From an uncultured Ectothiorhodospiraceae bacterium (lineage in GTDB: Bacteria > Pseudomonadota > Gammaproteobacteria > JAABTG01), in contig CAYTPQ010000003.1 in the NCBI GenBank assembly GCA_964439835.1, positions 55,468-119,467 on the forward strand: a stretch of DNA of 64,000 bases. Direction: 5' to 3'. Position 1 is the stretch's first letter. Every line of letters starts with the position of its first letter. Below, piece after piece: positions 3,475-62,135 of the stretch. The notes below the pieces were generated by a model that saw nothing but the letters and a program-made list of their open reading frames with translations, was not told the DNA's origin and did no database searches. The translations under genes and the position numbers were made by a program.

Positions 3475-4551
3475 ATGGGACCCCAAGGCTACACACTGTT
3501 GGTCACTGGCGGCGCCGGGTTTATCGGCTCGGAGGTCGTGCGCCAGGTCATCGCCGAGACCGACTGGACCGTGGTCAACGTCGACAAGCTGACCTACGCC
3601 GGCAATCTGGAATCCCTCGAGTCGGTCGCCGCCGACCCGCGCTATTACTTCGAGCGCGTCGACGTCTGCGACGCCGCGGCCGTGCAGGGCCTGTTCGCGC
3701 GCTACCGCCCCGACGCGGTCATGCACCTGGCCGCCGAGAGCCACGTCGACCGCTCGATCGACGGGCCGGCCGAGTTCATCCAGACCAATGTCTGGGGCAC
3801 CTACACCCTGCTGCAGGAGGCCCTGCGTCACTGGCGCACGCTCCCCGACGAGGAGCGCACGACCTTCCGCTTCCATCACGTCTCGACCGACGAGGTCTAC
3901 GGCTCACTGGGGGCAACCGGGCTCTTTACCGAGGAGACCCCGTACGCCCCCAACTCGCCCTATTCCTCGAGCAAGGCCGCCTCCGACCACCTGGTGCGGG
4001 CCTGGCACCACACCTACGGGCTACCGGTGGTCACCAGCAACTGCTCGAACAACTACGGCCCGTTCCAGTTCCCGGAGAAGCTGATACCGCTGGTCACGCT
4101 CAACGCGCTCGAAGGCAAACCGCTGCCGATCTACGGCCAGGGCGACAACGTGCGCGACTGGCTCTACGTCGGGGACCACGTGCGCGCGCTGCGCCGGATC
4201 CTGACGGCCGGCACACCGGGCGAGACCTACAACGTCGGCGGCAACAACGAGCGCACCAACCTGGAGGTCGTGCAGACGATCTGCGCGGTGCTGGACGCGC
4301 TGCGGCCGGACTCGCCCTACCGGCCCCACGCACAACTGATCACCTTCGTCACCGATCGTCCCGGCCACGACAAGCGCTACGCGATCGACGCCACCAAGAT
4401 CGCCCGCGAGCTCGGCTGGACGCCGGCGGAATCGTTCGAGTCGGGCCTGCGCAAGACCGTGCAGTGGTACCTGGACAACCCGCGCTGGTGGCAGCGCGTG
4501 CAGGACGGCAGCTATCAGCGCGAGCGACTGGGTCTCGGAGGCAGCGCATGA
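3475..4551 (+). CDS. rfbB: dTDP-glucose 4,6-dehydratase
   Basis: TGGAGFIGS Rossmann motif and YSSSKAASD catalytic motif. There is an SD (ggagcggag) before the ATG at 3475. Confidence 0.92.
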
Positions 4552-5423
4552 AGGGCATCATCCTCGCCGGCGGCAGCGGCACGCGGCTCTACCCGCTGAC
4601 CCAGGTGGTCAGCAAGCAGCTGCTGCCGGTCTACGACAAACCGATGGTCTACTACCCGCTGTCCACGCTGATGCTGGCGGGGATCCGGGAGATCCTGATC
4701 ATCTCCACGCCCCAGGACCTCCCGCGCTTTCGCGAGCTGCTCGGCAGCGGCGCCCAATGGGGTCTCGATCTCGCCTACGCCGAGCAGCCGCGGCCCGAAG
4801 GTCTCGCCCAGGCTTTCGTCATCGGCGCGCCGTTCGTCGGCGCCGACACGGTCTCCCTGGTACTCGGCGACAACATCTTCTACGGCCACCGCATGGCGAC
4901 CGTGCTGCAGCAGGCCGCGCGCGAGCGCGAGGGCGCGACCGTGTTCGGCTACTACGTCCGTGACCCCGAGCGCTACGGCGTCGTCGCCTTCGACGCCAGC
5001 GGGCGCCCGAGCCAGATCGTCGAGAAGCCGAAGGTCGCGCCGTCCAACATTGCCGTCACGGGGCTCTACTTCTACGACAACGAGGTGATCGAGGTCGCGC
5101 GCAACCTCAGGCCCTCGCCGCGGGGTGAGCTCGAGATCACCGACGTCAACGCCCATTACCTGGCACGGGGCCAGCTGCGGGTCGAGATGCTCGGCCGCGG
5201 CACCGCCTGGCTCGACACCGGCACCCACGAGTCGCTGCTGAAGGCCGGCCAGTTCGTGCAGCTCCTGGAGGAGCGCCAGGGGCTCAAGGTCGCCTGCCCC
5301 GAAGAGATCGCCTGGCGCATGGGCTACATCGACGACGAGCGCCTGGAGGCACTGGCCGCGCCGCTGGCGAAGAGCGGCTACGGCGAGTACCTGCTGGAGA
5401 TGCTGCGGCGGGGGGGACTATGA
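4548..5423 (+). CDS. rfbA: Glucose-1-phosphate thymidylyltransferase
   Basis: [18 protein letters not shown]... The ATG overlaps the rfbB stop as ATGA. Confidence 0.92.
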
Positions 5424-5438
5424 GCGGCAAACAACAGA

Positions 5439-5570
5439 GAACACCACAAAGGACACGAAGCGAATTGAAGGAGAAGCGAATGCGGCGACCAATCCGGGGC
5501 CTGCCGAGAGGCGTCAGCGGCGCTCCCGTTCTTTCAGCCTCCCTTCTTGTTCTTCGTGTCCTTCGTGGTT
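5439..5570. repeat. Family C hairpin element, copy 2, intergenic between rfbA and rfbC
   Basis: Arms gaacaccacaaaggacacgaag ... cttcttgttcttcgtgtccttcgtggtt share the GGACACGAAG core with the copy at 1630-1700. Confidence 0.55.
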
Positions 5571-10739: not shown

Positions 10740-12680
10740 ATGTCCAGGTACTCGGCGGAGCCCGCACAAGACGCTTCACCCGGTTCCCGCCCCCCGCCGG
10801 CCCGTCCCGTCGACTCGAACTGGCTCTGCGGGGTCTTCGACCCGACCGCGGCCGTGCCCCCGAGCGAACGCCTCGGGCCGATGGCAGCGACTGCACCGGC
10901 CTCGGCCCGTCCCGCCACCGCCGCCACCGCCAACGGCTGCACCGTCGCGGCCCACTGGGCGGCCACGGCCGAGGGCCTGCTGGTCGGCGTGGCGGGACAC
11001 CCGTACTGGGACGGGGCGCCCACGGACCTCCCGCAGGACCCCGCCGCGGCGCTGGCAGTTCTCTATCGCCGCATGGGCGAGCGCTGCCTGGCCCCGCTGC
11101 GCGGCGCCTTCACGGTGGCCGTCTACGACCCCGCGGCCGGGACCGGCCTGCTCGCCATCGACCGCATCGGCCAGCACCACCTGTACTACGCGCAGGTCGG
11201 CGAGGCCCTCGCCTTCGGCTCCTCCGCCGACGCGGTGCTGGCCTTCCCGGGCGTGCCGCGCGAGCTCTCCCACGACGCCCTGTTCCAGTACCTGTACTTC
11301 CACATGATCCCGAGCCCGGGGACGGTCTACCGCGCGGTCTCCAAGCTCGAAGGCGCCCACTGCCTCCTCTTCCGCCCCGGCCGCGTCGAGGTCCGTCCCT
11401 ACTGGCGCCCGACCTTCGTCGAGACCTGGGGCGGCCGCGATCAAAGGGGTCTGACCCCATCGGTCCGCGATCAATGGGGTCAGACCCCTTTGATCCGGGC
11501 AGCGGGGGAAGAGCTGCGGGCGCTGCTCCAGGCGGACGTCGCCCGCTACTGCGACCTCCCCGGGGTCGGCGCCTTCTTGAGCGGGGGGCTCGACAGCTCG
11601 ACCGTCGCCGGTCTCCTCGCGCGGGTCCGGCCCGGGGAGGCCCACACCTACTCGGTCGGGTTTGCCGAGGAGCAGTACAACGAGCTGCCTTACGCGCACC
11701 TCAGCGCCGACTGGTTCAAGACCACCCAGCACGACGTCATCGTCTGCCCCGACGACGCCCTCACCGCCGTTGCCACGGTCGCAGCGGCCTTTGACGAGCC
11801 CTTCGGCAACTCCTCGGCGCTCGCCGCCTACTTCTGTGCCAAAGCCGCGCGGGCGGACGGCGTCACCCGGCTCATCGCCGGCGACGGCGGCGATGAGCTC
11901 TTCGCCGGCAACGAGCGCTACGGCAAGCAGCTGGTGTTCGAGGCCTATTTCCGGCTGCCGGTGGCGCTGCGCCGGGGCCTCCTGGAGCCACTGCTGCTCG
12001 GCATCCCCGCCCTCGATCGGGTCCCGTTGGTGAAAAAAGGCGTGAGCTACGTGCGCCAGGCGCTCGTGCGGCTGCCCGACCGCTTCGACACCTACAGCTA
12101 CCTGCACCGGCACCCCCTCACCGAGATCTTCCAGCCGGACTTCCTCGCCAGCGTCGACACCGGGGCCCCGTCGCGCGCGATGCAGGCGCTCTGGGACGCG
12201 GTGCCCGGCGCCAGCACCGTCAACCGGATGCTGTTCCTCGACTGGAAGAAGACCCTGCAGGACAACGACCTGGTCAAGGTCAACCGCATGGCCGAGGCCG
12301 CGGGGGTCGAGGTCGTCTACCCGATGCTGGACGACGCGGTGGTGGAGCTCTCCTGCCGGGTACCGAGCCGGCTGAAGCTGAAACCGGGGCAGCTGCGCTA
12401 CTTCTACAAAGAGGCGATGCGCGGGTTCCTGCCGCCCGAGACCCTGAGCAAGAAGAAGCACGGCTTCGGCCTGCCGTTCGCCATCTGGATCACGAGCCAC
12501 CGGCCGCTGCAGGAGCTCGCCTACGACAGCGTGCTGGCCCTGCGCGACCGCCCCTACCTCCGGCCCGAGTTCTTGGAGAGGGCGATCCGCCTTCATCAGC
12601 ACGATACGGCGGTCTACTACGGCGAGCTGGTCTGGATCCTGATGATGTTGGAGCAGTGGCTGCGCTCTCGCGGTCTCTGA
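10740..12680 (+). CDS. Asparagine synthetase-like glutamine amidotransferase. It resembles exosortase-A-associated amidotransferase 1
   Basis: Class-II GATase region (LCGVFD...), AsnB PP-loop SGGLDSS and a C-terminal AsnB domain. It contains an in-frame family A repeat (11437-11496). An N-terminal extension lies before the catalytic Cys. Confidence 0.8.
   Translation: MSRYSAEPAQDASPGSRPPPARPVDSNWLCGVFDPTAAVPPSERLGPMAATAPASARPATAATANGCTVAAHWAATAEGLLVGVAGHPYWDGAPTDLPQDPAAALAVLYRRMGERCLAPLRGAFTVAVYDPAAGTGLLAIDRIGQHHLYYAQVGEALAFGSSADAVLAFPGVPRELSHDALFQYLYFHMIPSPGTVYRAVSKLEGAHCLLFRPGRVEVRPYWRPTFVETWGGRDQRGLTPSVRDQWGQTPLIRAAGEELRALLQADVARYCDLPGVGAFLSGGLDSSTVAGLLARVRPGEAHTYSVGFAEEQYNELPYAHLSADWFKTTQHDVIVCPDDALTAVATVAAAFDEPFGNSSALAAYFCAKAARADGVTRLIAGDGGDELFAGNERYGKQLVFEAYFRLPVALRRGLLEPLLLGIPALDRVPLVKKGVSYVRQALVRLPDRFDTYSYLHRHPLTEIFQPDFLASVDTGAPSRAMQALWDAVPGASTVNRMLFLDWKKTLQDNDLVKVNRMAEAAGVEVVYPMLDDAVVELSCRVPSRLKLKPGQLRYFYKEAMRGFLPPETLSKKKHGFGLPFAIWITSHRPLQELAYDSVLALRDRPYLRPEFLERAIRLHQHDTAVYYGELVWILMMLEQWLRSRGL
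11437..11496. repeat. Family A palindromic element, copy 1, inserted in frame inside the AsnB-like CDS
   Basis: gatcaaaggggtctgaccccat-cggtccgc-gatcaatggggtcagacccctttgatc. The half-sites are reverse complements of each other. It is translated as ...DQRGLTPSVRDQWGQTPLIR... Confidence 0.75.
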
Positions 12681-14752: not shown

Positions 14753-14904
14753 GGCGCTCTGAAGTCGGAGATCCGCATTATAGGCCGGCGGGCACCTCCT
14801 ACCCCCGCCGGCCGCTTCCCGGCTTGACCTCCGTGCCTGTTCGCCTCGTCGGCGCTGACCTATGCTTCCACGGCCCTGACCAACGGCAGTGGAGGTGGGC
14901 CTCG

Positions 14905-15864
14905 ATGGCGGATCTGAGCGAGCTGGAGCGCTTTCCGGTCAGCGTCTTTTCGGTGGTGATGGGGCTGGCGGGCCTGGCCCTCGCCCTGGGTGCGGCGGCG
15001 GGTGACCTCGGGCTGGGCACTGCGCCTGCCCTGGCGGTGACCCTGCTGGCGAGCGCCGTGTTCCTGGCGCTCGCGGTCCTCTACGGGGTCAAGCTCGTGC
15101 GCTACCGTTCCGCCGTGGTCGCGGAGTGGAACCACCCGGTCAAGCTGGCCTTCTTCCCGACCTTTTCGATCAGCCTGACCTTGCTGGCGGCGGCCTGGCT
15201 GCCCCACGCCCCCCGTCTCGCCCAGGCGCTGGTCGTCGCCGGCGCCGCACTGCAACTGGTGTTCACGATTGCGGTGCTCTCGGCCTGGCTCTACCACACG
15301 CGGTTCGAGATCCAGCACAGCAACCCCGCCTGGTTCATCCCGGTGGTCGGGAACATCCTGGTGCCGATCCCAGGCGTCGCCCTGCTGTCCGCAGAGACCG
15401 CCTGGTTCTTCTTCAGCGTGGGCCTGGTGTTCTGGCTGCTGCTGTTCGCCGTGCTCTTCTACCGCGTCATCTTCCACGCGCCGCTTGCCGAGAAGCTGAT
15501 GCCGACCTTCTTCATCTTCATCGCCCCCCCGGCGGTCGGCTTCGTCGCCTACCTGGCGTTGACCGGGACCCCGGACCCCTTCGCGCGGGTCCTTTACTAC
15601 ACGGCGCTGTTCCTGACCCTGCTGCTGCTGGTGCAGCTGCCCCGCTTCTCGCGCCTGCCCTTCAGCCTCTCCTGGTGGGCCTACTCCTTCCCGCTGGCCG
15701 CCGTGACGGTCGCCTCCAGCCTCATGTCGGCGCACACGGGACTCGCCTTCTTCCAGTATGTGGCGACTGCGCTCCTGGCCCTGCTGCTGTTCCTGGTGGG
15801 CCTGCTGTTGGTGCGCACCGCCGCCGCCACCCGCCACCACGGCCTGGCGCTCGACGAGGCCTGA
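14905..15864 (+). CDS. TDT-family transporter (TehA/Mae1/SLAC1-like; tellurite-resistance/C4-dicarboxylate transporter family)
   Basis: About 10 predicted TM helices with TehA-like sequence (FPVSVFSVVMGLAGLALA...NPAWFIPVVGNILVP). SD ggaggtgg before the ATG at 14905. Confidence 0.75.
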   Translation: MADLSELERFPVSVFSVVMGLAGLALALGAAAGDLGLGTAPALAVTLLASAVFLALAVLYGVKLVRYRSAVVAEWNHPVKLAFFPTFSISLTLLAAAWLPHAPRLAQALVVAGAALQLVFTIAVLSAWLYHTRFEIQHSNPAWFIPVVGNILVPIPGVALLSAETAWFFFSVGLVFWLLLFAVLFYRVIFHAPLAEKLMPTFFIFIAPPAVGFVAYLALTGTPDPFARVLYYTALFLTLLLLVQLPRFSRLPFSLSWWAYSFPLAAVTVASSLMSAHTGLAFFQYVATALLALLLFLVGLLLVRTAAATRHHGLALDEA

Positions 15865-15880: not shown

Positions 15881-15955
15881 TCACCGCAGAGGCGCAGAGG
15901 CGCAGAGGTATATCCGTGAGCTTTTCTCTGCGCCTCTGCGCCTCTGCGGTGAAAC
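15881..15955. repeat. Family B hairpin element, copy 1. 26-nt near-perfect inverted repeat CACCGCAGAGGCGCAGAGGCGCAGAG with a 20-nt AT-rich loop
   Basis: tcaccgcagaggcgcagaggcgcagagg-tatatccgtgagcttttct-ctgcgcctctgcgcctctgcggtg. It lies between the TDT gene and the RND membrane-fusion gene. Confidence 0.75.
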
Positions 15956-15957
15956 GT

Positions 15958-17040
15958 ATGCGCGCGCGCGCCCTGTTCGCCGCAAGTGGTCAGCGCTGGG
16001 TCGCCCTTGGGACCGCCCTCCTGCTCGTTGCCTGCTCGCCCTCCCCCGCGCCGCCCTCGGCCCAGACCGCCCGGGAGGCCCGCGTACACCTGGTCGAGGT
16101 GGCGACCGCAGCGACCCGGCCGGTGGAGCGGACCAGCGTGAACACCGGGACCCTGAAGGCCCGCCGCCTGCTGCGGGTCTTCACCCAGGAGGAGGGTCGC
16201 ATCACCGCGCTGCCCTTCTTCGAGGGCGACCGGGTCCGCAAGGGCGAGGTGGTGCTGCGCCTGGACGAAGCCCTCCTAAAGACCCAGCTCGACAAGGCCG
16301 TCGCGAGCCGCCAGCAAGCCGACATCGACCTCAAGCGCCTGCAGGGCCTGACCGGCCGTCAACTCGTGTCCGAAGACGAGATCGCCCGGGCGCGCACCGC
16401 CGTCGAGATCGCCCGGGCCGAGGAGGCCGCACTGCAGACGCGCCTCGGGTACGCCGTCGAGCGCGCGCCCTTCGACGCCGTGGTGAGCGCGCGGCTGGCC
16501 GAGCCGGGGGACGTGGTGGCGCGTCACACCCACGTGCTGACCCTGACCGACCCGACATCGCTGGTGACCGAGGTGCCAGTCTCCGAGCTGGTGACCCCCT
16601 ACCTGAAGATCGGGGACCCGGCCGAGGTCCGGGTCGACGCCCTCGGCGCAGCGACCCTAAACGGTCGGATCCTGCGCATCCACCCCGCGCTTGAGGCGCG
16701 CCAGCGCCGGGGGCTGGTGGAGGTGGGCCTGGAGCCCGTGCCGCCGGGTGCACAGGCGGGGCAGTTCGCCCGCGTCACCCTGCGCATCGACGAGGGCGAG
16801 CGGCTGCTGGTGCCGTTCGCGGCCCTGCAACGCGACCGGGACCGCGAGCTCGTGTACCGGGTCGGCGCCGACGGCCGGGTCACCCGTGTGAGCGTGCGCA
16901 GCGGGACCCGCCACGGCAACGCGGTGGAGGTCCTGGAGGGACTCTCCCCCGGCGATACGGTGGTCACGCGCGGCTTCCTCGGCCTGCGCGACGGCCTGAA
17001 GGTCCAAGTGGTGGCGCCGGCCTCCGACCGCAGCGGCTGA
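15958..17040 (+). CDS. RND efflux membrane fusion (periplasmic adaptor) lipoprotein, HlyD family
   Basis: Lipoprotein signal MRARALFAASGQRWVALGTALLLVAC. The coiled-coil and beta-barrel domains are typical of AcrA/MexA-like proteins. The start was placed after the repeat, since the ORF-track start at 15871 reads through the element. Confidence 0.85.
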   Translation: MRARALFAASGQRWVALGTALLLVACSPSPAPPSAQTAREARVHLVEVATAATRPVERTSVNTGTLKARRLLRVFTQEEGRITALPFFEGDRVRKGEVVLRLDEALLKTQLDKAVASRQQADIDLKRLQGLTGRQLVSEDEIARARTAVEIARAEEAALQTRLGYAVERAPFDAVVSARLAEPGDVVARHTHVLTLTDPTSLVTEVPVSELVTPYLKIGDPAEVRVDALGAATLNGRILRIHPALEARQRRGLVEVGLEPVPPGAQAGQFARVTLRIDEGERLLVPFAALQRDRDRELVYRVGADGRVTRVSVRSGTRHGNAVEVLEGLSPGDTVVTRGFLGLRDGLKVQVVAPASDRSG

Positions 17041-17050
17041 CGCGCGGATT

Positions 17051-17127
17051 CCACCGCAGAGGCGCAGAGATATATCTCCATGTTTTCACCGATCAATCCT
17101 CTGCGTCTCTGCGCCTCTGCGGTGAGC
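17051..17127. repeat. Family B hairpin element, copy 2
   Basis: ccaccgcagaggcgcagaga-tatatctccatgttttcaccgatcaatcct-ctgcgtctctgcgcctctgcggtg, lying between the membrane-fusion gene and the RND pump gene. Confidence 0.75.
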
Positions 17128-17150: not shown

Positions 17151-20100
17151 GTGACCCGGCCGTCCGGCAAGGCCGAGCCACCCCACACCGCCGGCGGTCT
17201 GGCCGGCTGGTCGATCCGCCACCCGATCGGGGTGGTGATGCTGTCCCTCGCGGTGGTCGTGCTCGGGGTCTTCGCGGCCTCTCGGCTGGGCATCGACCTG
17301 CTGCCGCACATCGTGTACCCGGAGATCGGGGTCCGGGTCACGGACCCGGGGGTGCCCGCGGTGATCATGGAGGACCAGGTGACCCGCCCGCTCGAGGAGG
17401 CCCTGGCGGCGACGGAGGACGCCATCGCGCTGCAGTCACAGAGCACCGAGGGGCGGAGCAGCGTCGACCTCTCCTTCGCCTACGGCACCGACGTGGACCA
17501 GGCCCTGCGCGACGCCAGCAGCCGGCTGGACCGGGCCAAGCGCCTGCTGCCAACCACCGTCGAGCCGGCCACCATCTTCAAGCGCGACCCCTCCCAGATC
17601 CCGGTGGTGGAGCTGGTGATCGCCTCGCCCCTGCGCGACCCGGTGGCGCTTCGGACCTGGGTCGACGACGTCTTCGCCCGCTGGTTCATCAACCTTCCCG
17701 GCGTCGCCGCCACCGAGGTCGGCGGCGGGCTGGTGCGGGAGATCCACATCCTGCCCGACCAGCAGCGCCTGGCGGGGCTGGGGTTGACGGTGGAGGACCT
17801 GGCGCGCGCGGTCGCGGCGGCGAACCGGGACACCCCAGGCGGGCGCCTGCGTGCGGAGGGCACGGACCTGGTAGGACGCACCAGCGGCCGGTTCGCGGGC
17901 GTCGCGGAGCTGGCCGACCTGCCGCTGGACCTCCCGGGACTCCCGGGCGAGGCGCCGGTCCTGCGTCTGGGCGAGGTCGCCGAGGTCATCGACACCCACG
18001 AGGACGAGCGGCTGCGGGTGCGGGTGAACGGCACCGCCGGCATCAAGCTCTCGGTCCAGAAGCAGCCGCAGGCCAACACAGTCGAGGTGGTCGACGGCGT
18101 CCTCGCGCGCCTCGCCTGGCTGCGGGACCAGGGGCTGGTGCCCGCCGACGTCACCGTGGTCACGGTCGACGAGCAGGCGCGCTACGTCCGCCAGGCCCTG
18201 GCCAACGCCCGGGACGCGGTCGTGAGCGGGGCCGTGCTGGCGATGCTCGTGGTTTATCTGTTCCTCGGCAGTGTCACGCGCACGCTGGTCATCGGCAGCG
18301 TCATTCCGATCGCGGTGATGGTGACCTTCGTGCTGATGGACGCCGGAGGCCTGACACTCAACATCATGTCGCTCGGCGGACTCGCCCTCGGCGTCGGCCT
18401 GCTGGTCGACAACACCATCGTGATGTTGGAGAACGTGGTCCGTCACCAGTCGGCCGGCGAACCGGCGGGGGAAGCCCCGCTCGCCGCCGCCCGGGAGGTG
18501 CAGGGGGCGCTGGTGGCCTCGACCTCGACCAACCTGGCCGCGGTGCTGCCGTTCCTGTTCGTCGGCGGGCTGGTCGGCCTGCTCTTCCGGGAGCTGATCT
18601 TCACCATCTCGGCGGCAACCCTGGCCTCCCTGGTGGTCGCCCTGACCCTGGTGCCGGCGCTCACGGCGAGGTCAGCCCCGTCCGCACCGGGCCGCCTGCG
18701 GCGCGGCGTGGACCGGGCGGTGGACGCCCTGGGCTCGGGCTACGCCCGGCTGGTCGCCCTGACCCTGCGGGTCCCCTGGCTACCTCCGCTCGTGCTCGGG
18801 GCCGTGCTCGCGGCCACCCTGCCGACCTTCCTGACCGGCAAGCAGGTCTTCTTCCCGGACATGGACGAGGGGCGGATCTCGGTCAGCGTGGTGGCCGACC
18901 CCGGCATCCCGCTCGACGAGATGGACAGCCGGGTCGGGCGACTGGAGGCGCTCCTGCTCGCCCAGCCAGAGGTGGTCAACGTCTACGCCCAGGTCGGGGG
19001 CAACGTCTTCGGCCGCTCGCAGTTCGAGTCGCCTAACCGCGCCACCCTGTCGGTGTACCTGGTGCCGGCCGACCGGCGAACGGTCAGCACCGACGGTTGG
19101 ATCCAGCGGATGCAACGGGAGGTCGCCGCACTGAAGCTCGCCGGGACCACGGTGCGGATGACCAGCCAGGGGATCCGGGGGATCCGCTACAGCCGCGGGG
19201 ACGAGAGCCTGAGCGTGCGAGTACGCGGACCGGACCTGGAGGTCCTGGCCCGCCTCGGTGAAGAGGCGGTGGAGCGCATCCGGGACCTGCCGGGCCTGCG
19301 CAACGTCCAGCACTCGCTGGAGGAGGTCCGCCAGGAGCTGTCGGTGCGGGTCGACCGGGAGCGTGCCGCCGCCCTCGGCCTCACGGTCGAGGAGGTGGGC
19401 CGGGCGGTCCAGATTGCCCTAGAGGGGCGCGTGATCTCGGACTTCCTCGACGGCGACCGCCGGTTCGACGTGCGCCTGCGCCTGCCGCCGCTGGAGTTCA
19501 GCAGCGCCGCCGCCCTCGAGGGGCTGCTGCTCTACCCGCCGGCGGGCGAGCGGGCGCCGGTTTACCTCGGCGACGTGGCCCGGGTGGAGCTCGCCCCGGC
19601 CCCGGTCACCATCCGGCGCGACCAGCAGCAGCGGATCGTCGAGGTGAGCGCGAGCCCGACCGGTGAGCGTACCCTTGGCGAGGTCAGTGCGGAGGTCTGG
19701 GCGAGGCTCGCCGATATGCCGCTGCCCGAGGGTTACTCCCTCTACGACGGTGGGACCTTGAAAGCCCTGCAGGAGAGCCAGGGGCAGGGGCGGGCGATGC
19801 TCGGGCTGGCGATCTTCCTGGTGCTGGTCGTGATGGCGGTGCAGTACGAATCGCTGCGAAATCCCTTGGTGGTGCTGGTGAGCGTGCCGTTCGCGGCCAT
19901 CGGCGTGGCGCTGGCGATCCGGGCCCTCGATCTGCCCCTCTCGATGCCGGTCTGGCTCGGCCTCATCATGCTGGCGGGGATCGTGGTCAACAACGCCATC
20001 GTGCTGGTGGAGTACGTCGAGCAGGCCCGGGCCCGCGGGGCCGCGCGGGACGAGGCCATCGTCGAGGCGGCCCGGCTGCGCCTGCGGCCGATCCTGATGA

Positions 20101-20573
20101 CCACCCTGACGACGGTGGTCGGCATGCTGCCCCTGGCGCTGGGCGTCGGCCAGGGCTCGGAGATGCTGCGTCCCCTCGCCCTCACCATCGTCTGGGGCCT
20201 GGCCTTCTCGACCCTGGTCACCCTCATCCTGATCCCTGCGGTCTACCGCCTGGCCCACCCGATCAATGGGGTCAGACACCTTTGGTCGGGGGTTGAGGTC
20301 GCCCGACCAAAGGTGTCTGACCCCATTGATCGCTCGTACCCGTCGCTGCAGTCGTCCGAGCTGGCGGCCAGAGCGGACGTGGAGCCCTCCCCCCCGGCGG
20401 CGGGCGGCCAAACACCGTGGGACTCACTGCCGGCAGAGCAGCAGACGCGCCTGCGGGTCGAGTACGGCCGCTACCTGGACTCGCTACCGCCCACCTGCTC
20501 GCTCGAGGAGAAGAACGCCCGCTTTGCCCGCTGGCTGGCGGAGCGCGGCGTGGTCTACGTCCCGCCGCAATAG
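17151..20573 (+). CDS. RND efflux pump inner-membrane component (HAE1/AcrB family), with an in-frame family A repeat and an ~80-aa C-terminal extension
   Basis: 12-TM AcrB-like architecture (IRHPIGVVMLSLAVVVLG...). TM12 ends at about aa 1035. The repeat at 20261-20331 follows, and the frame stays open for a further 80 aa. Confidence 0.85.
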   Translation: MTRPSGKAEPPHTAGGLAGWSIRHPIGVVMLSLAVVVLGVFAASRLGIDLLPHIVYPEIGVRVTDPGVPAVIMEDQVTRPLEEALAATEDAIALQSQSTEGRSSVDLSFAYGTDVDQALRDASSRLDRAKRLLPTTVEPATIFKRDPSQIPVVELVIASPLRDPVALRTWVDDVFARWFINLPGVAATEVGGGLVREIHILPDQQRLAGLGLTVEDLARAVAAANRDTPGGRLRAEGTDLVGRTSGRFAGVAELADLPLDLPGLPGEAPVLRLGEVAEVIDTHEDERLRVRVNGTAGIKLSVQKQPQANTVEVVDGVLARLAWLRDQGLVPADVTVVTVDEQARYVRQALANARDAVVSGAVLAMLVVYLFLGSVTRTLVIGSVIPIAVMVTFVLMDAGGLTLNIMSLGGLALGVGLLVDNTIVMLENVVRHQSAGEPAGEAPLAAAREVQGALVASTSTNLAAVLPFLFVGGLVGLLFRELIFTISAATLASLVVALTLVPALTARSAPSAPGRLRRGVDRAVDALGSGYARLVALTLRVPWLPPLVLGAVLAATLPTFLTGKQVFFPDMDEGRISVSVVADPGIPLDEMDSRVGRLEALLLAQPEVVNVYAQVGGNVFGRSQFESPNRATLSVYLVPADRRTVSTDGWIQRMQREVAALKLAGTTVRMTSQGIRGIRYSRGDESLSVRVRGPDLEVLARLGEEAVERIRDLPGLRNVQHSLEEVRQELSVRVDRERAAALGLTVEEVGRAVQIALEGRVISDFLDGDRRFDVRLRLPPLEFSSAAALEGLLLYPPAGERAPVYLGDVARVELAPAPVTIRRDQQQRIVEVSASPTGERTLGEVSAEVWARLADMPLPEGYSLYDGGTLKALQESQGQGRAMLGLAIFLVLVVMAVQYESLRNPLVVLVSVPFAAIGVALAIRALDLPLSMPVWLGLIMLAGIVVNNAIVLVEYVEQARARGAARDEAIVEAARLRLRPILMTTLTTVVGMLPLALGVGQGSEMLRPLALTIVWGLAFSTLVTLILIPAVYRLAHPINGVRHLWSGVEVARPKVSDPIDRSYPSLQSSELAARADVEPSPPAAGGQTPWDSLPAEQQTRLRVEYGRYLDSLPPTCSLEEKNARFARWLAERGVVYVPPQ
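20261..20331. repeat. Family A palindromic element, copy 2, in frame in the C-terminal tail of the RND pump ORF
   Basis: gatcaatggggtcagacacctttggtcggg-ggttgaggtc-gcccgaccaaaggtgtctgaccccattgatc, translated as ...INGVRHLWSGVEVARPKVSDPID... Confidence 0.75.
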
Positions 20574-30344: not shown

Positions 30345-30433
30345 ATCAAAGGGGTCAGACTCGATTGATCCACCGGCGACCCGACCGATGCCTGCGACCC
30401 GGCCGGGATCAATCGAGTCTGACCCCTTTGATC
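30345..30433. repeat. Family A palindromic element, copy 3, intergenic between the oxidoreductase A and B subunit genes
   Basis: atcaaaggggtcagactcgattgatcc-...-ggatcaatcgagtctgacccctttgatc. Confidence 0.7.
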
Positions 30434-32167: not shown

Positions 32168-32183
32168 CGGACGGGGGGCAGGC

Positions 32184-32282
32184 CCCCGGTACGGTCCCGC
32201 GGGACACGCCGCAAGTACGTCCCTGTAGGCTCGTCTGCCGCCATCCATGGCGTCAGACGGTCCCGCGAAACCGTACCGGGGA
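32184..32282. repeat. Family D ~100-bp nested-hairpin element, copy 1 (subtype 1)
   Basis: cccggtacggtcccgcgggacacgccgcaagtacgtccctgtaggctcgtctgccgccatccatggcgtcagacggtcccgcgaaaccgtaccgggg. It has terminal and internal inverted repeats and lies between convergent genes. Confidence 0.75.
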
Positions 32283-32357
32283 CCTGCGTCCAACTGGTCG
32301 GTTGCCTCGGCAAAGCGCGCCCAAAGTACCGCTGGGATTTCCCGGGAGACCGGGAAG

Positions 32358-37825: not shown

Positions 37826-39859
37826 ATGAGCGCCGTCATCGCCCCGCGTCCCGCGACGCTGCCGTCCCGTATCGTCAAGCGCGACGGCCGCCCCGTCCCC
37901 TTCGACGCCGACCGCATCTACTCGGCCCTCCTGCGGGCCGGTCAGGCGACCGGCGAGTTCGCGGAGGACGAGGCCCGCCTGATCACGGCGCAGGTAGTCA
38001 AGGTCATCAGCCACCGCTTCGGACCCGAGGAGCCGCCGACCATCGAGCGGGTGCAGGACATGGTCGAGCAGGCCCTGATCAGCGCCAACCACCTCCAGAC
38101 CGCCCGCGCCTACATCGTCTACCGCGAGCAGCACAAGCGCCTGCGCGAGGACCGCCGCACGCTGGTGGACGTGGAGAGCTCGATCCGCGAGTACCTGGAC
38201 CGGGTCGACTGGCGGGTGTCGGCCAACGCCAACCAGGGCTACTCGCTGGGCGGGCTGATCCTGAACACCTCCGGCAAGGTCGTCGCCAACTACTGGCTCT
38301 CCCACGTCTATCCGCCCGAGATCGGCAACGCCCACCGGGAGGGCGACGTCCACATCCACGACCTGGACATGCTCGCCGGCTACTGTGCGGGCTGGTCGCT
38401 ACGCACGCTCCTCACCGAGGGCCTGAACGGCGTTCCCGGCAAGGTCGAGGCCGGGCCTCCGAAGCACATGTCGAGCGCAGTGGGCCAGATCGTCAACTTC
38501 CTCGGCACCCTGCAGAACGAGTGGGCGGGGGCCCAGGCCTTCAGCTCGTTCGACACCTACATGGCGGCCTTCGTGCGCAAGGACCGCCTCGGCTACCGCG
38601 AGGTCAAGCAGTACGTCCAGGAGCTGATCTACAACCTGAACGTCCCGTCGCGCTGGGGGACCCAAACACCGTTCACCAATCTCACCTTCGACTGGGTCTG
38701 CCCGGAGGACCTGCGCCCGCAGGTGCCGATCATCGGCGGCCAGGAGATGCCGTTCACCTACGGCGACCTACAGGCCGAGATGGACCTCATCAACCGCGCC
38801 TACATCGAGGTGATGACGGACGGTGACGCCAAGGGCCGGGTCTTCACCTTCCCAATCCCGACCTACAACGTCACCCCCGACTTCCCCTGGGAGAGCGAGA
38901 ACGCCGACCGGCTGTTCGCGATGACCGCGAAGTACGGCCTGCCCTACTTCCAGAACTTCGTGAACTCCGATCTGAAGCCCAACATGATTCGGTCCATGTG
39001 CTGCCGTCTGCAGCTCGACCTCCGCGAGCTGCTCAAGCGCGGCAATGGACTCTTCGGATCGGCCGAGCAGACGGGGTCGGTGGGGGTCGTGACCATCAAC
39101 TGCGCGCGCCTGGGCTATCTGTTCCCCGGCGACGAGACCGGCCTCTACGCGCGCCTCGACCAGCTCCTCGACATCGCCCGCAACAGCCTCGAGATCAAGC
39201 GCAAGGTGATCCAGCGTCATATCGACGCCGGGCTCTTCCCCTACACGAAGCGCTACCTCGGCACCCTGCGCAATCACTTCTCGACCATCGGCGTGAACGG
39301 GATCAACGAGATGATCCGCAACTTCACCGCCGGCGACGAGGACGTCACCACCGCCTGGGGCGAACAGTTCGCCTCGCGGTTCCTGGACCACATTCGCGCG
39401 CGGATGGTCGAGTTCCAGGAGGTGACGGGCCACATGTACAACCTGGAGGCGACACCGGCCGAGGGCACGACCTACCGCTTCGCGAAGGAGGACCGCAAGC
39501 GCTTCCCCGGGATCCTGCAGGCCGGCTCGCCGGAGGCGCCCTACTACACCAATTCCTCGCAGCTCCCGGTCGGCTTCACCGACGACCCGTTCGAGGCCTT
39601 GGAACGGCAAGAGAAGCTACAGAAGAAGTACACCGGCGGCACCGTGCTGCACCTGTACATGAGCGAGCGGATCTCCAGCGCCGACGCCTGCCGCCAGCTG
39701 GTCAAGCGCGCGCTGGAGCGCTTCCGCGTCCCGTACATCACGGTGACGCCAACCTTCTCGATCTGCCCGAAACACGGCTACCTGTCGGGCGCCCACGAAT
39801 TTTGCCCGCTCTGCGACGAGGAGGCCCTCGCCCGCAAGCAGGCCGCGGCGGTCCATTGA
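37826..39859 (+). CDS. nrdD: Anaerobic ribonucleoside-triphosphate reductase (class III) large polypeptide with an N-terminal ATP-cone. It ends after the Zn-ribbon, before the glycyl-radical motif
   Basis: ATP-cone (VKRDGRPVPFDADRIYSAL), NrdD core and a C-terminal CPKHGY...CPLC zinc ribbon. There is no RVxGY glycyl-radical motif in this ORF. SD gggagga before the ATG at 37826. Confidence 0.85.
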   Translation: MSAVIAPRPATLPSRIVKRDGRPVPFDADRIYSALLRAGQATGEFAEDEARLITAQVVKVISHRFGPEEPPTIERVQDMVEQALISANHLQTARAYIVYREQHKRLREDRRTLVDVESSIREYLDRVDWRVSANANQGYSLGGLILNTSGKVVANYWLSHVYPPEIGNAHREGDVHIHDLDMLAGYCAGWSLRTLLTEGLNGVPGKVEAGPPKHMSSAVGQIVNFLGTLQNEWAGAQAFSSFDTYMAAFVRKDRLGYREVKQYVQELIYNLNVPSRWGTQTPFTNLTFDWVCPEDLRPQVPIIGGQEMPFTYGDLQAEMDLINRAYIEVMTDGDAKGRVFTFPIPTYNVTPDFPWESENADRLFAMTAKYGLPYFQNFVNSDLKPNMIRSMCCRLQLDLRELLKRGNGLFGSAEQTGSVGVVTINCARLGYLFPGDETGLYARLDQLLDIARNSLEIKRKVIQRHIDAGLFPYTKRYLGTLRNHFSTIGVNGINEMIRNFTAGDEDVTTAWGEQFASRFLDHIRARMVEFQEVTGHMYNLEATPAEGTTYRFAKEDRKRFPGILQAGSPEAPYYTNSSQLPVGFTDDPFEALERQEKLQKKYTGGTVLHLYMSERISSADACRQLVKRALERFRVPYITVTPTFSICPKHGYLSGAHEFCPLCDEEALARKQAAAVH

Positions 39860-39869
39860 GGAAAGAGAA

Positions 39870-39936
39870 CCGCAGAGGCGCAAAGGCGCAGAGAGGATTG
39901 GTGGGATCGATGCTTCTCGGCGTCTGCGTGTCTCGG
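39870..39936. repeat. Family B hairpin element, degenerate copy 3, between the two nrdD pieces
   Basis: ccgcagaggcgcaaaggcgcagagagg...ctcggcgtctgcgtgtctcgg. The left arm matches copies 1 and 2, and the right arm is decayed. Confidence 0.5.
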
Positions 39937-39974
39937 TAGCAACCGAGTGAGAACAAGAGGAGAGGAAACTGACG

Positions 39975-40142
39975 ATGAGTGAGGGGAGAATCGAGCTGAG
40001 CGAGACCGAGCGCACCCGCTGCGAGGTGTGGACGCGGGTGATGGGCTACCACCGGCCGGTCTCCGCCTTCAATCCCGGCAAGCAGTCCGAGCACCGCGAG
40101 CGCACGCCCTTCCAGGAGCGGCGCTGTGCGGCGCTGCGGTGA
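39975..40142 (+). CDS. 55-aa ORF carrying the NrdD glycyl-radical motif, apparently the detached C-terminal module of nrdD
   Basis: It is not in the ORF track (<60 aa). Own translation: MSEGRIELSETERTRCEVWTRVMGYHRPVSAFNPGKQSEHRERTPFQERRCAALR. It matches the NrdD C-terminal glycyl-radical region (RVxGY...NxGKQxE..R). Strong SD aagaggagagg 8 nt before the ATG. Confidence 0.6.
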   Translation: MSEGRIELSETERTRCEVWTRVMGYHRPVSAFNPGKQSEHRERTPFQERRCAALR

Positions 40143-40204
40143 GGGCACCGCATCCGCAAATTCATTAGGGCCGGCTGAGAATCCCTGCACCGGGCTTCAA
40201 GCAG

Positions 40205-40305
40205 GTTTCCGGTGCGGTTTTGCGGGACCGTATGCCGCCTGGATGGCGGCATACGAGCCTACAGGGACGTATTCACGGCGCGTCCCGCGGGACCGCACCG
40301 GGAAT
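40205..40305. repeat. Family D nested-hairpin element, copy 2 (subtype 2, reverse orientation)
   Basis: Its reverse complement aligns with copy 4 (cccggtgcggtcccgcgggac.cgccgtgaatacgtccctgtaggctcg.atgccgcc...). It lies between convergent genes. Confidence 0.7.
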
Positions 40306-40346
40306 CTGCTGGCACGGTGGCGAGACCGTAGTCTTTCGCCTGCTCA

Positions 40347-61790: not shown

Positions 61791-61843
61791 TCGGTTGCGC
61801 GGCGGCTACAAGACATCGCAAGCCGCGAGGTAGGCGGGCAGGT

Positions 61844-61942
61844 CCCCGGTACGGTCCCGCGGGACACGCCGCAAGTACATCCCTGTAGGCTCGTCTGCCG
61901 CCGTCCCTGGCGTCAGACGGTCCCGCAAGACCGTACCGGGGA
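61844..61942. repeat. Family D nested-hairpin element, copy 3 (subtype 1)
   Basis: Near-identical to copy 1 (ccccggtacggtcccgcgggacacgccgcaagtacatccctgtaggctcgtctgccgccgtccctggcgtcagacggtcccgcaagaccgtaccgggga). Confidence 0.75.
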
Positions 61943-62135
61943 CCTGCTCGAAGGTTGGCGCGAGAATCCTAGGAGCATGTCGGACTTCGCCGCGCCGCGA
62001 GATCCCAGGCGCACAGCTCGAGTTTCTCAATCGCCATCAGCCCCAGACTTCGCGTAGACGGGCCCAAGTTGCTCACGATCTTCGCTTACCGGGAGTGCCG
62101 AAAGCGAGGATGCGAAGAACCGCTCGTCCGGACTC

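Follow-up and report, generated by a model that had tools for sequence, protein, structure and literature searches.

The stretch of DNA analysed here (64,000 nt of contig CAYTPQ010000003.1, from an uncultured Ectothiorhodospiraceae bacterium; hereafter the window) carries a cluster of three genes for a SLAC1/TDT-family transporter, an HlyD-type periplasmic adaptor or membrane-fusion protein (MFP) and an AcrB-type RND pump, and each of the two gaps between these genes contains one long hairpin. The best reading of the two hairpins is that they are members, devoid of an open reading frame (ORF), of an apparently undescribed family of palindromic mini-elements whose arms are arrays of heptamers (heptamer-array elements). 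We consider it very probable that they originated as inserted members of this widespread family. The best overall explanation, in which these ORF-less inserted elements alter the folding, processing and translation of the operon mRNA, also appears probable to us, if with somewhat less assurance.

An earlier note on this DNA, made from the sequence alone, had described two hairpins in both gaps of a TDT / membrane-fusion / RND cluster, with arms built from a tandem repeat motif and ending shortly before the next start codon. The places, the motif and the gene identities all stand. Hairpin 1 (15881-15952) is a CACC-capped palindrome located in the TDT-MFP gap (93 nt). Its arms (15881-15907 and 15926-15952) are 27 nt each and 100% complementary, with three CGCAGAGG octamers per arm behind the CACC cap and an AT-rich loop of 18 nt. 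Hairpin 2 (17052-17124) belongs to the same family and lies in the MFP-RND gap (110 nt); neither hairpin is assigned to a strand. The arms of hairpin 2 (17052-17070 and 17106-17124) are 19 nt each, again 100% complementary, and stand 35 nt apart, with an additional degenerate unit, CTCTGCGT, on the 3' side (17098-17105); behind the CACC cap the left arm has two CGCAGAGG octamers and the right arm three. From the end of the hairpin to the next start codon there are 5 nt for hairpin 1 (ATG of the MFP gene, 15958) and 26 nt for hairpin 2 (GTG of the pump gene, 17151). As for the dimensions given earlier, the arm length of 19 nt holds for hairpin 2 and that of 26 nt has to be changed to 27 nt for hairpin 1; the loops are AT-rich as described, and the second is corrected to 35 nt (27 nt with the degenerate unit taken as part of the arm).

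Both hairpins are predicted to be very stable when folded as RNA from either strand, the check that the earlier note had proposed: -64.1 (+ strand) and -63.9 (- strand) kcal/mol for hairpin 1 (z = -9.9 and -13.5), -41.6 (+ strand) and -48.8 (- strand) kcal/mol for hairpin 2 (z = -6.3 and -7.4), values that were equalled by none of 200 shuffles. Their loops have a G+C content of 39-43%, compared with 71% for the window. With up to two mismatches, the 15-nt core CGCAGAGGCGCAGAG is found nine times in the window against an expectation of 0.85, a number reached in none of 100 shuffles. Searching the window against Rfam gave no match at gathering thresholds, rRNA included, and at E-value thresholds merely sub-threshold generic miRNA-precursor hairpin models, i.e. 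noise. Attenuation had been suggested as one possible role. As intrinsic termination it is not supported, and we have rejected an intrinsic terminator or attenuator, since no U-tract follows either stem on the + strand (where the sequence continues as AAACGTATG and AGCAACCCC) or on the - strand (TCGACGTC and GAATCCGC) and a terminator scan left both hairpins unflagged.

The arms of these hairpins are by no means restricted to the window. The exact 18-mer CACCGCAGAGGCGCAGAG was found at no fewer than 120 loci in a collection of species-representative genomes (by our own estimate, a uniform 18-mer in 596 Gb would be expected about 17 times by chance) and also in 41 viral contigs. Among the matches listed are Acidobacteriota, Planctomycetota, Chloroflexota, Burkholderiales, Rhodocyclales, Desulfobacterota, Bacteroidia, Firmicutes, Nitrospirota, Gemmatimonadota, Verrucomicrobiota and others, including a cultured isolate, Thiohalophilus thiocyanatoxydans DSM 16326 (L078). 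The window itself contains three copies of the family and two relatives with CACGAAG-type units. The earlier note had raised a mobile role and held that a lack of further genomic copies, coupled with an unbroken transcript, would speak against it; the abundance of copies supports the mobile origin. Neither of the arm 15-mers occurs in the full-text literature that we could search, a library that is incomplete.

Copies of the family share a characteristic architecture. Specifically, the left end is (T)TCACCGCAGAGG, followed by CGCAGAG-like heptamers 1-4 nt apart, and the right end is the exact reverse complement of the left array, ending in GGTGA(A), with a variable, mostly AT-rich interior. 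A complementary partner was located within 3 kb for 102 of the 141 arm matches, and most elements measure 49-200 nt in total. In many copies the complementarity of the arms is perfect and includes the spacers (39 nt in L091). Tandem or nested copies are present in loci such as L079, L089, L107 and L109, and some interiors (L033 6290-6434, L042 3540-3930, L079 2530-2810 and L109 245-695) hold other repeat-like sequence or a second nested heptamer hairpin, that of L079 being of another subtype with CATGAAG units; this suggests that the hairpin loops are themselves insertion targets. Short copies avoid genes, only 18% of 88 lying within long ORFs compared with 72% of random positions (p = 5.6e-25). 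The genes on either side of them point the same way in 41 cases, towards each other in 11 and away from each other in 7. A flanking direct repeat of at least 3 nt was seen in 0 of 55 copies, and the termini TT|CACC...GGTG|AA are kept in 75-85% of these 55; the flanking sequence is rich in A on the left and in T on the right. In one phage contig, two related copies of ~120 nt each stand between structural genes.

We have defined the family by a (T)TCACC cap, followed by two or more tandem CRCRGAG units (2-5 in the elements as we describe them) at 8-9-nt spacing, and an inverted repeat ending in GGTGA(A). Hairpin 1, which reads TCACC-(GCAGAGGC)x3...GGTGA, and hairpin 2 both fit this definition. 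They are intergenic, have no visible direct repeats at their flanks and hence no target-site duplication, and are missing at the orthologous sites of three related operons.

These operons come from contigs of relatives that were found by a search with the adaptor protein (L001 to L005). In the closest one, L001 (96% identity), both hairpins are kept at identical junctions; hairpin 1 has one substitution in an arm and another in the loop, the 93-nt gap as a whole having 3, and the left arm of hairpin 2 has three units instead of two, an 8-nt unit indel. L002 (91% identity) has a decayed hairpin 2 at the MFP-RND junction. The other three relatives (L003, L004 and L005, with an MFP identity of 72-73%) have the gene order of the window, i.e. 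ABC transporter, TDT, adaptor and pump, and no heptamer hairpin was detected at either their TDT|MFP or their MFP|RND junction. In these three the MFP|RND junction is overlapping (GTGA or TAGTG), and at TDT|MFP the genes overlap by 4 nt in L005, with called gaps of 38 nt in L004 and 70 nt in L003. The absence of hairpins 1 and 2 from these orthologous operons shows that the hairpins are insertions, two independent ones at two junctions of an operon that has the gene order of its hairpin-free relatives. Along these lines, L003 has a CACAGAG-type hairpin (2912-2993) between the S24 peptidase and ABC transporter genes, a junction that is empty in the window, so that different lineages carry elements at different junctions of one conserved neighbourhood.

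The same comparison bears on two other explanations. The earlier note saw the hairpins as bracketing the membrane-fusion gene, which as a unit they do not do. One could think of recombination sites that delimit the MFP gene as a mobile cassette, in the manner of integron attC sites. Left and right arrays do bracket single genes in phage contigs and in the coding form described below, and the left arm of hairpin 1 is complementary to the right arm of hairpin 2. Nevertheless, each gap contains a complete palindrome and not a half-site, the GTTRRRY core of attC sites is absent from the sequence, and TDT, MFP and RND are orthologous and in the same order in the relatives without hairpins. We have rejected the MFP gene as a cassette on this conserved gene order, and recombination sites of this kind have next to no probability. 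A second possibility is that the hairpins have no relation to mobile elements and were evolved locally by the host, to serve in attenuation or processing. Their occupation of both junctions of one operon, their conservation in L001 and their great stability would fit. However, the census contradicts it, with identical arms at 120 or more unrelated loci in many phyla and in phages; the hairpins are also missing from the orthologous operons of L003 to L005, their loops have a foreign base composition and there is no U-tract for termination. This origin is highly improbable, and we return to hairpins 1 and 2 as inserted elements.

Conservation of the gaps provides another view of the insertions. 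Between the window and L001, 5 of 203 positions differ in the gaps with the hairpins (2.5%), compared with 61 of 496 four-fold sites of the three flanking genes (12.3%; p = 1.3e-5).

Going beyond the earlier note, the comparisons assign the arms to a pan-bacterial family of elements enclosing genes of GxxExxY proteins, which are nucleases as predicted from their fold family, PD-(D/E)XK. Where partner arms are 330-610 nt apart, the interior is a single ORF. In three loci, L118 (5703-6158), L029 and L064, arms that start CACCGCAGAGGCGCAGAGG and are identical to hairpin 1 over at least 19 nt enclose a complete GxxExxY gene of ~125 aa. The enclosed protein matches TIGR04256 ('GxxExxY protein', E = 4.5e-46) and PF13366 (PDDEXK_3, E = 6e-44). 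In this coding form the purine-rich arm extends as far as the Shine-Dalgarno sequence with the ATG, and the complementary arm comes directly after the stop. The GxxExxY genes of L080 and L055 are flanked by variant arrays. L064 also has an internally deleted copy (4460-4585), with ~20 N-terminal codons left, which adjoins a full-length frameshifted copy.

The association was also examined in the reverse direction. While our first set of loci had been chosen by the exact 18-mer, the second consists of 80 metagenome loci picked solely by GxxExxY protein similarity (the top-ranking 80 among 585 relatives belonging to a single GxxExxY subtype), 77 of them with adequate flanks. We searched for an inverted repeat between the 150 nt upstream and the 150 nt downstream of each gene, with a cut-off score of 16. 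This score was reached or exceeded by 56 of the 77 GxxExxY genes, where shuffles gave a maximum of 13 or less, and by none of 60 other ORFs of the same loci, whose maximum was 10.5 (p = 3.5e-21). The arm units found include CACAGAG, CGCAGAG, CACGGAG, CGCAAAG, CACGAAG and CGCCGAG; arms of the CACGAAG type flank GxxExxY genes in L190, L197 and L203. From units anchored solely on RAG and periodicity, we derived the consensus C(93%)-R-C(97%)-R-G(83%)-A-G, with a period of 8-9 nt and usually after TTCACC or TTAACC. C1, C3, A6 and G7 of the unit are strongly conserved, beyond the needs of pairing, which suggests sequence-specific recognition. Over all arm pairs the interior lengths are bimodal (0-150 nt and 350-450 nt).

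GxxExxY proteins form a very large family: in one search every one of the 8000 scored candidates had an E value below 1e-5. Its invariant D67, E77 and K79 correspond to the catalytic pattern of PD-(D/E)XK enzymes (D...E-x-K). A profile search found no relative among PDB sequences, a structure prediction from 30 close homologues was too poor for a fold search (mean pLDDT 56), PADLOC gave only a marginal match to Cas4b (E = 0.024) and PHROGs none. A survey of the superfamily lists GxxExxY as of unknown function, with multiple transfers between bacterial divisions (PMC3424549). Otherwise, the library that we could search, which is incomplete, gave one incidental mention of GxxExxY, PF13366 or TIGR04256 and no link to the arms; for PF05635 and TIGR02436 it gave nothing about flanking repeats.

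The coding form helps to weigh two familiar kinds of mobile palindromes. Hairpins 1 and 2 might be classical miniature inverted-repeat transposable elements (MITEs), deletion derivatives of an insertion sequence with a DDE transposase that moves by cut-and-paste, as could be argued from their terminal inverted repeats, small size and many copies and from the one internally deleted intermediate observed. Such elements would duplicate their target, something seen in 0 of 55 copies, and no element of transposase size was present among arm pairs up to 1.6 kb apart; what such interiors contained was GxxExxY, repeats of other kinds or, where the hairpins were separate ones, ordinary host genes. A MITE origin is therefore hardly credible. 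Elements of the REP/REPIN type, spread by a RAYT (Y1 HUH) transposase, share with the hairpins their nature of intergenic palindromes without target duplication, in many copies and with possible doublets. However, the termini here are TTCACC...GGTGAA and lack a head of the GTAG type, each arm is an array of heptamers and not a single imperfect palindrome, one arm sequence extends across many phyla, unlike the lineage-specific REP sequences, and the gene between the arms is GxxExxY and not a Y1 transposase (no scan was aimed at Y1 transposases). We regard this explanation as very unlikely too.

How the elements move is a more speculative matter. As a hypothesis, GxxExxY could be the enzyme that moves heptamer-array elements, which we consider possible but clearly short of probable. 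Similarly tentative is the wider idea that the arrays are the ends of previously undescribed mobile single-gene mini-cassettes of bacteria and phages, moved by GxxExxY without target duplication and leaving behind numerous ORF-less hairpins that rewire operon mRNAs, the present efflux operon being a case. If true, it would provide a function for PF13366/TIGR04256, among the most abundant uncharacterised families of small proteins in metagenomes, and identical arms would also carry phage accessory genes, including a Tad2-like anti-defence gene. In any case, the association of arms and GxxExxY is a first testable idea on the role of this very large family, and suggests how palindromes of the same sequence reach unrelated phyla and phages.

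What the insertions would do to the operon can be pictured as follows. Two elements entered the TDT|MFP and MFP|RND junctions in an ancestor of this lineage, without target duplication. Once in the transcript, each element would form a long perfect duplex (27 bp and 19-21 bp, respectively). Because the palindrome reads alike from either strand, the purine-rich array is 5' and the pyrimidine-rich array 3' in any transcript. The duplex would end the ancestral translational coupling, and stem 1 would bury GGTGA, a stretch at its 3' end, 6 nt before the ATG, that is the one Shine-Dalgarno-like sequence available to the MFP gene. Both duplexes would be substrates of RNase III and a barrier to 3' exonucleases. 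Cleavage by RNase III would free the start site of the adaptor, while the upstream segment would keep half a stem at its 3' end. Each of the three cistrons would thereby be expressed from an mRNA segment processed on its own, as is known for Correia elements, REP/BIME sequences and the intervening sequences (IVS) of 23S rRNA. Duplexes of 27 bp and ~20 bp are within the size range cut by RNase III, and a stem half at the 3' end of an RNA is a barrier to exonucleases. As precedents, RNase III cuts the Coxiella IVS midway along its terminal stem of 28 bp (PMC4990558), and it binds the hairpins of Correia elements, which it either cleaves or protects (PMC2649163).

Effects on RNase processing, stability or translation, which the earlier note had included among its suggestions, are plausible for the hairpins, and both the stem 5 nt before the ATG and the conservation of the gaps relative to L001 fit them. 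We would put the chances of a real effect on the processing and translation of the operon mRNA at about even, this RNA-level role being inferred. Since tightly packed efflux genes now stand apart, with very stable stems between them, this operon probably sets its stoichiometry of adaptor and pump differently from relatives of the L003-L005 type.

A number of observations weigh against the explanation that we favour. To start with its RNA part, the hairpin-2 gap of L002 has diverged by 37%, versus 32% at the four-fold sites of the MFP gene; it has thus decayed at about the synonymous rate, which argues against long-term constraint. Judging from these alignments, the apparent constraint on the gaps is visible over the short term and absent over the long term, and arm-to-arm or copy-to-copy correction could be an alternative source of the short-term conservation. 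In the arm mismatches of 45 oriented cargo-bearing elements, G-U (62) does not exceed A-C (70) on the sense strand (p = 0.54), and the family hence gives no sign of selection for pairing at the RNA level. Concerning insertion, a pair of filled and empty sites with exact boundaries was not obtained. No empty site for the phage hairpin of L212 was found in viral contigs either, and an all-against-all BLAST of the fetched loci gave no near-identical elements in different contexts. As regards the link to GxxExxY, there is no such gene within the 64-kb window, and in 51 of 52 interiors of 40-250 nt no GxxExxY remnants were present above the shuffled background. L064 is the sole case, so that the short copies are shown to be deletion derivatives once and not generally.

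Moreover, the arrays of viral contigs also bracket other small genes, and other cargoes therefore exist. These are a Gp49/Sf6-gp66 family protein (PF13876) in L207 (9455-9895), L218 and L227, a protein with a Tad2-like (Thoeris anti-defence 2) domain (PF11195) in L234 (365-660) and ORFs of unknown family in L222 (2110-2500) and L236 (6430-7010). In L234 the sole in-frame start precedes the left arm, so that the arm would be translated. With such cargoes in phage contigs, the arms may be the basic unit and GxxExxY their dominant cargo. Finally, the frequencies from our two sets of loci are not population estimates, given the way in which the loci were selected.

Part of this evidence would also fit a simpler picture, in which the hairpins are inert relics, old selfish palindromic insertions that are tolerated between cistrons with no consequence for expression. 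Decay of the L002 copy at about the synonymous rate, the family's lack of a G-U over A-C bias, the presence of elements in every kind of intergenic context and in phages, and the decay of the third copy in the window all agree with it. On the other hand, a perfect 27-bp stem 5 nt before a start codon, in place of a tighter junction (an overlap in L005), could hardly be neutral for translation, and between the window and L001 the gaps are five-fold more conserved than four-fold sites. We consider inert relics rather unlikely, although by far the most serious of the alternatives, and retain ORF-less insertions that affect the operon mRNA as the probable explanation.

The genes around the hairpins are all on the + strand. 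The SLAC1/TDT gene (14824-15864; PF03595, E = 8.6e-55) lies 5' of hairpin 1 and stops with the TGA at 15862-15864; its start codon is uncertain. Between the hairpins is the MFP gene (15958-17040), whose start we have placed at the ATG at 15958 by its lipoprotein-like N terminus (MRARALF...LLLVAC). The conserved part of the pump gene is found at 17151-20259 (PF00873 match, residues 19-1036). Its ORF continues to 20573, through a palindrome unrelated to the hairpins. This palindrome (20260-20332) is of a second family (CGATCAATGGGGTCAGACACCTTTGGTCGGG, with perfect 31-nt arms) that is also present at 11431-11503 and 30345-30432. It starts exactly at the end of the AcrB Pfam match, and the pump ORF, which has no stop there, reads through it into an in-frame fusion with a downstream ORF of ~60 aa, a separate gene of 59 aa in L003 (10301-10480). 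Together with hairpins 1 and 2, the palindrome at the 3' end of the pump gene means that all three junctions of the cluster have palindromic insertions, of two families.

The hairpins have left their mark on annotation as well. A spurious N-terminal extension had been attributed to them before, and indeed the ORF from 15871 reads VTSITAEAQRRRGISVSFSLRLCASAVKRMRARALF, the extension VTSITAEAQRRRG...SLRLCASAVK of the ORF track being derived from the hairpin. The public gene call P0001 begins within the loop of hairpin 1 (MSFSLRLCASAVKR-MRARALF), and public calls lengthen the MFP gene by 14 codons into this hairpin. More broadly, the starts of P0001, P0002 and many public GxxExxY entries (134-177 aa) are often located in or 5' of the left arm, and such calls join arm-encoded residues (SLRLCASAVK, TAEAQRRRG) to real proteins. 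As hairpins of the heptamer-array family generate spurious ORFs of this kind, recognising the family would clean annotation.

The third family copy of the window (39868-39938, AACCGCAGAGGCGCAAAGGCGCAGAGAGG ... CTTCTCGGCGTCTGCGTGTCTCGGT, no strand assigned) is the decayed one that had been reported between the pieces of nrdD, and it is there. Its fold is weak (z -2.8). The split nrdD region spans 37826-40140. A 677-aa ORF (37826-39859) stops just past the CPLC zinc motif, ending ...CPLCDEEALARKQAAAVH*, and a 55-aa ORF from 39976, which reads MSEGRIELSETERTRCEVWTRVMGYHRPV..., has the glycyl-radical segment (RVMGY) and its own ribosome site, GAGGAGAGG. The pieces align to residues 525-610 and 612-641 of Thermotoga NrdD (4coi); as these are contiguous there, the decayed hairpin sits in an interruption of ~190 nt between the zinc ribbon and the glycyl-radical segment. 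A heptamer-array element thus appears to have entered the coding sequence of nrdD and split it.

Two superfamily relatives, again without an assigned strand, complete the set in the window. One (1628-1703) has CACGAAG-type units (AACCACGAAGGACACGAAGAACACCAAG...), with 35-nt arms, 86% complementary, and a 6-nt loop; the other (5443-5569) has CACAAAG/CACGAAG units, with 18-nt arms and a 91-nt interior starting GAAGGAG...ATG. A third family of palindromes (GCAGGTCCCCGGTACGGTCCCGCGGGAC ... reverse complement) was noticed in three copies (61835-61950, 32178-32287 and 40200-40310), with 28-31-nt arms and a spacer that is constant at 53-54 nt.

Several known systems resemble heptamer-array elements in one respect or another. 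Homing endonuclease genes are likewise small nuclease genes between or inside host and phage genes, sporadic and without target duplication, and homing endonucleases of the PD-(D/E)XK type exist, e.g. I-Ssp6803I. The likeness is to the GxxExxY genes, whose nuclease activity is predicted. Homing endonuclease genes differ in that they are not known to be enclosed by inverted repeats of heptamer arrays or to leave abundant ORF-less hairpins.

In their expected effect on neighbouring genes, the nearest known elements are the Correia elements (CREE/NEMIS) and the REP/BIME sequences. Correia elements occur only in Neisseria; they duplicate TA at the target, and their conserved core contains an IHF site. 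Heptamer-array elements, in contrast, have no target duplication, arms of heptamers, a range of many phyla and a coding form. What they have in common is being small palindromes beside genes with which they are co-transcribed, and in Correia elements the binding of RNase III, with cleavage or protection of the hairpins, changes the expression of the neighbours (PMC2649163). REP/BIME and REPIN-RAYT sequences are also intergenic palindromes, often within operons, with no target duplication and with a dedicated gene linked to them. A REP consists of one imperfect palindrome, 20-40 nt long and with a conserved head; REPs are limited to a species or genus and tied to a Y1 HUH transposase, and their stem-loops stabilise upstream mRNA against 3' exonucleases (malE-malF of E. 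coli). In heptamer-array elements, the associated gene belongs to the PD-(D/E)XK fold family and the arm sequence is common to many phyla. A review of REPINs is given in PMC3116915.

In architecture, the closest relatives known are the IVS of 23S rRNA in Leptospira, Coxiella and Salmonella. IVS are located in helices 9, 25 or 45 of 23S rRNA and their ORF encodes the four-helix-bundle protein S23p (PF05635), whereas heptamer-array elements are found between protein genes, once inside nrdD, and have heptamer arms and usually a GxxExxY ORF. The likeness lies in the terminal inverted repeats, the stem (~28 bp in IVS), the loop with an optional small ORF (~120 aa) and the sporadic, horizontal spread, and the IVS stem is cut mid-way by RNase III, without religation (PMC4990558).

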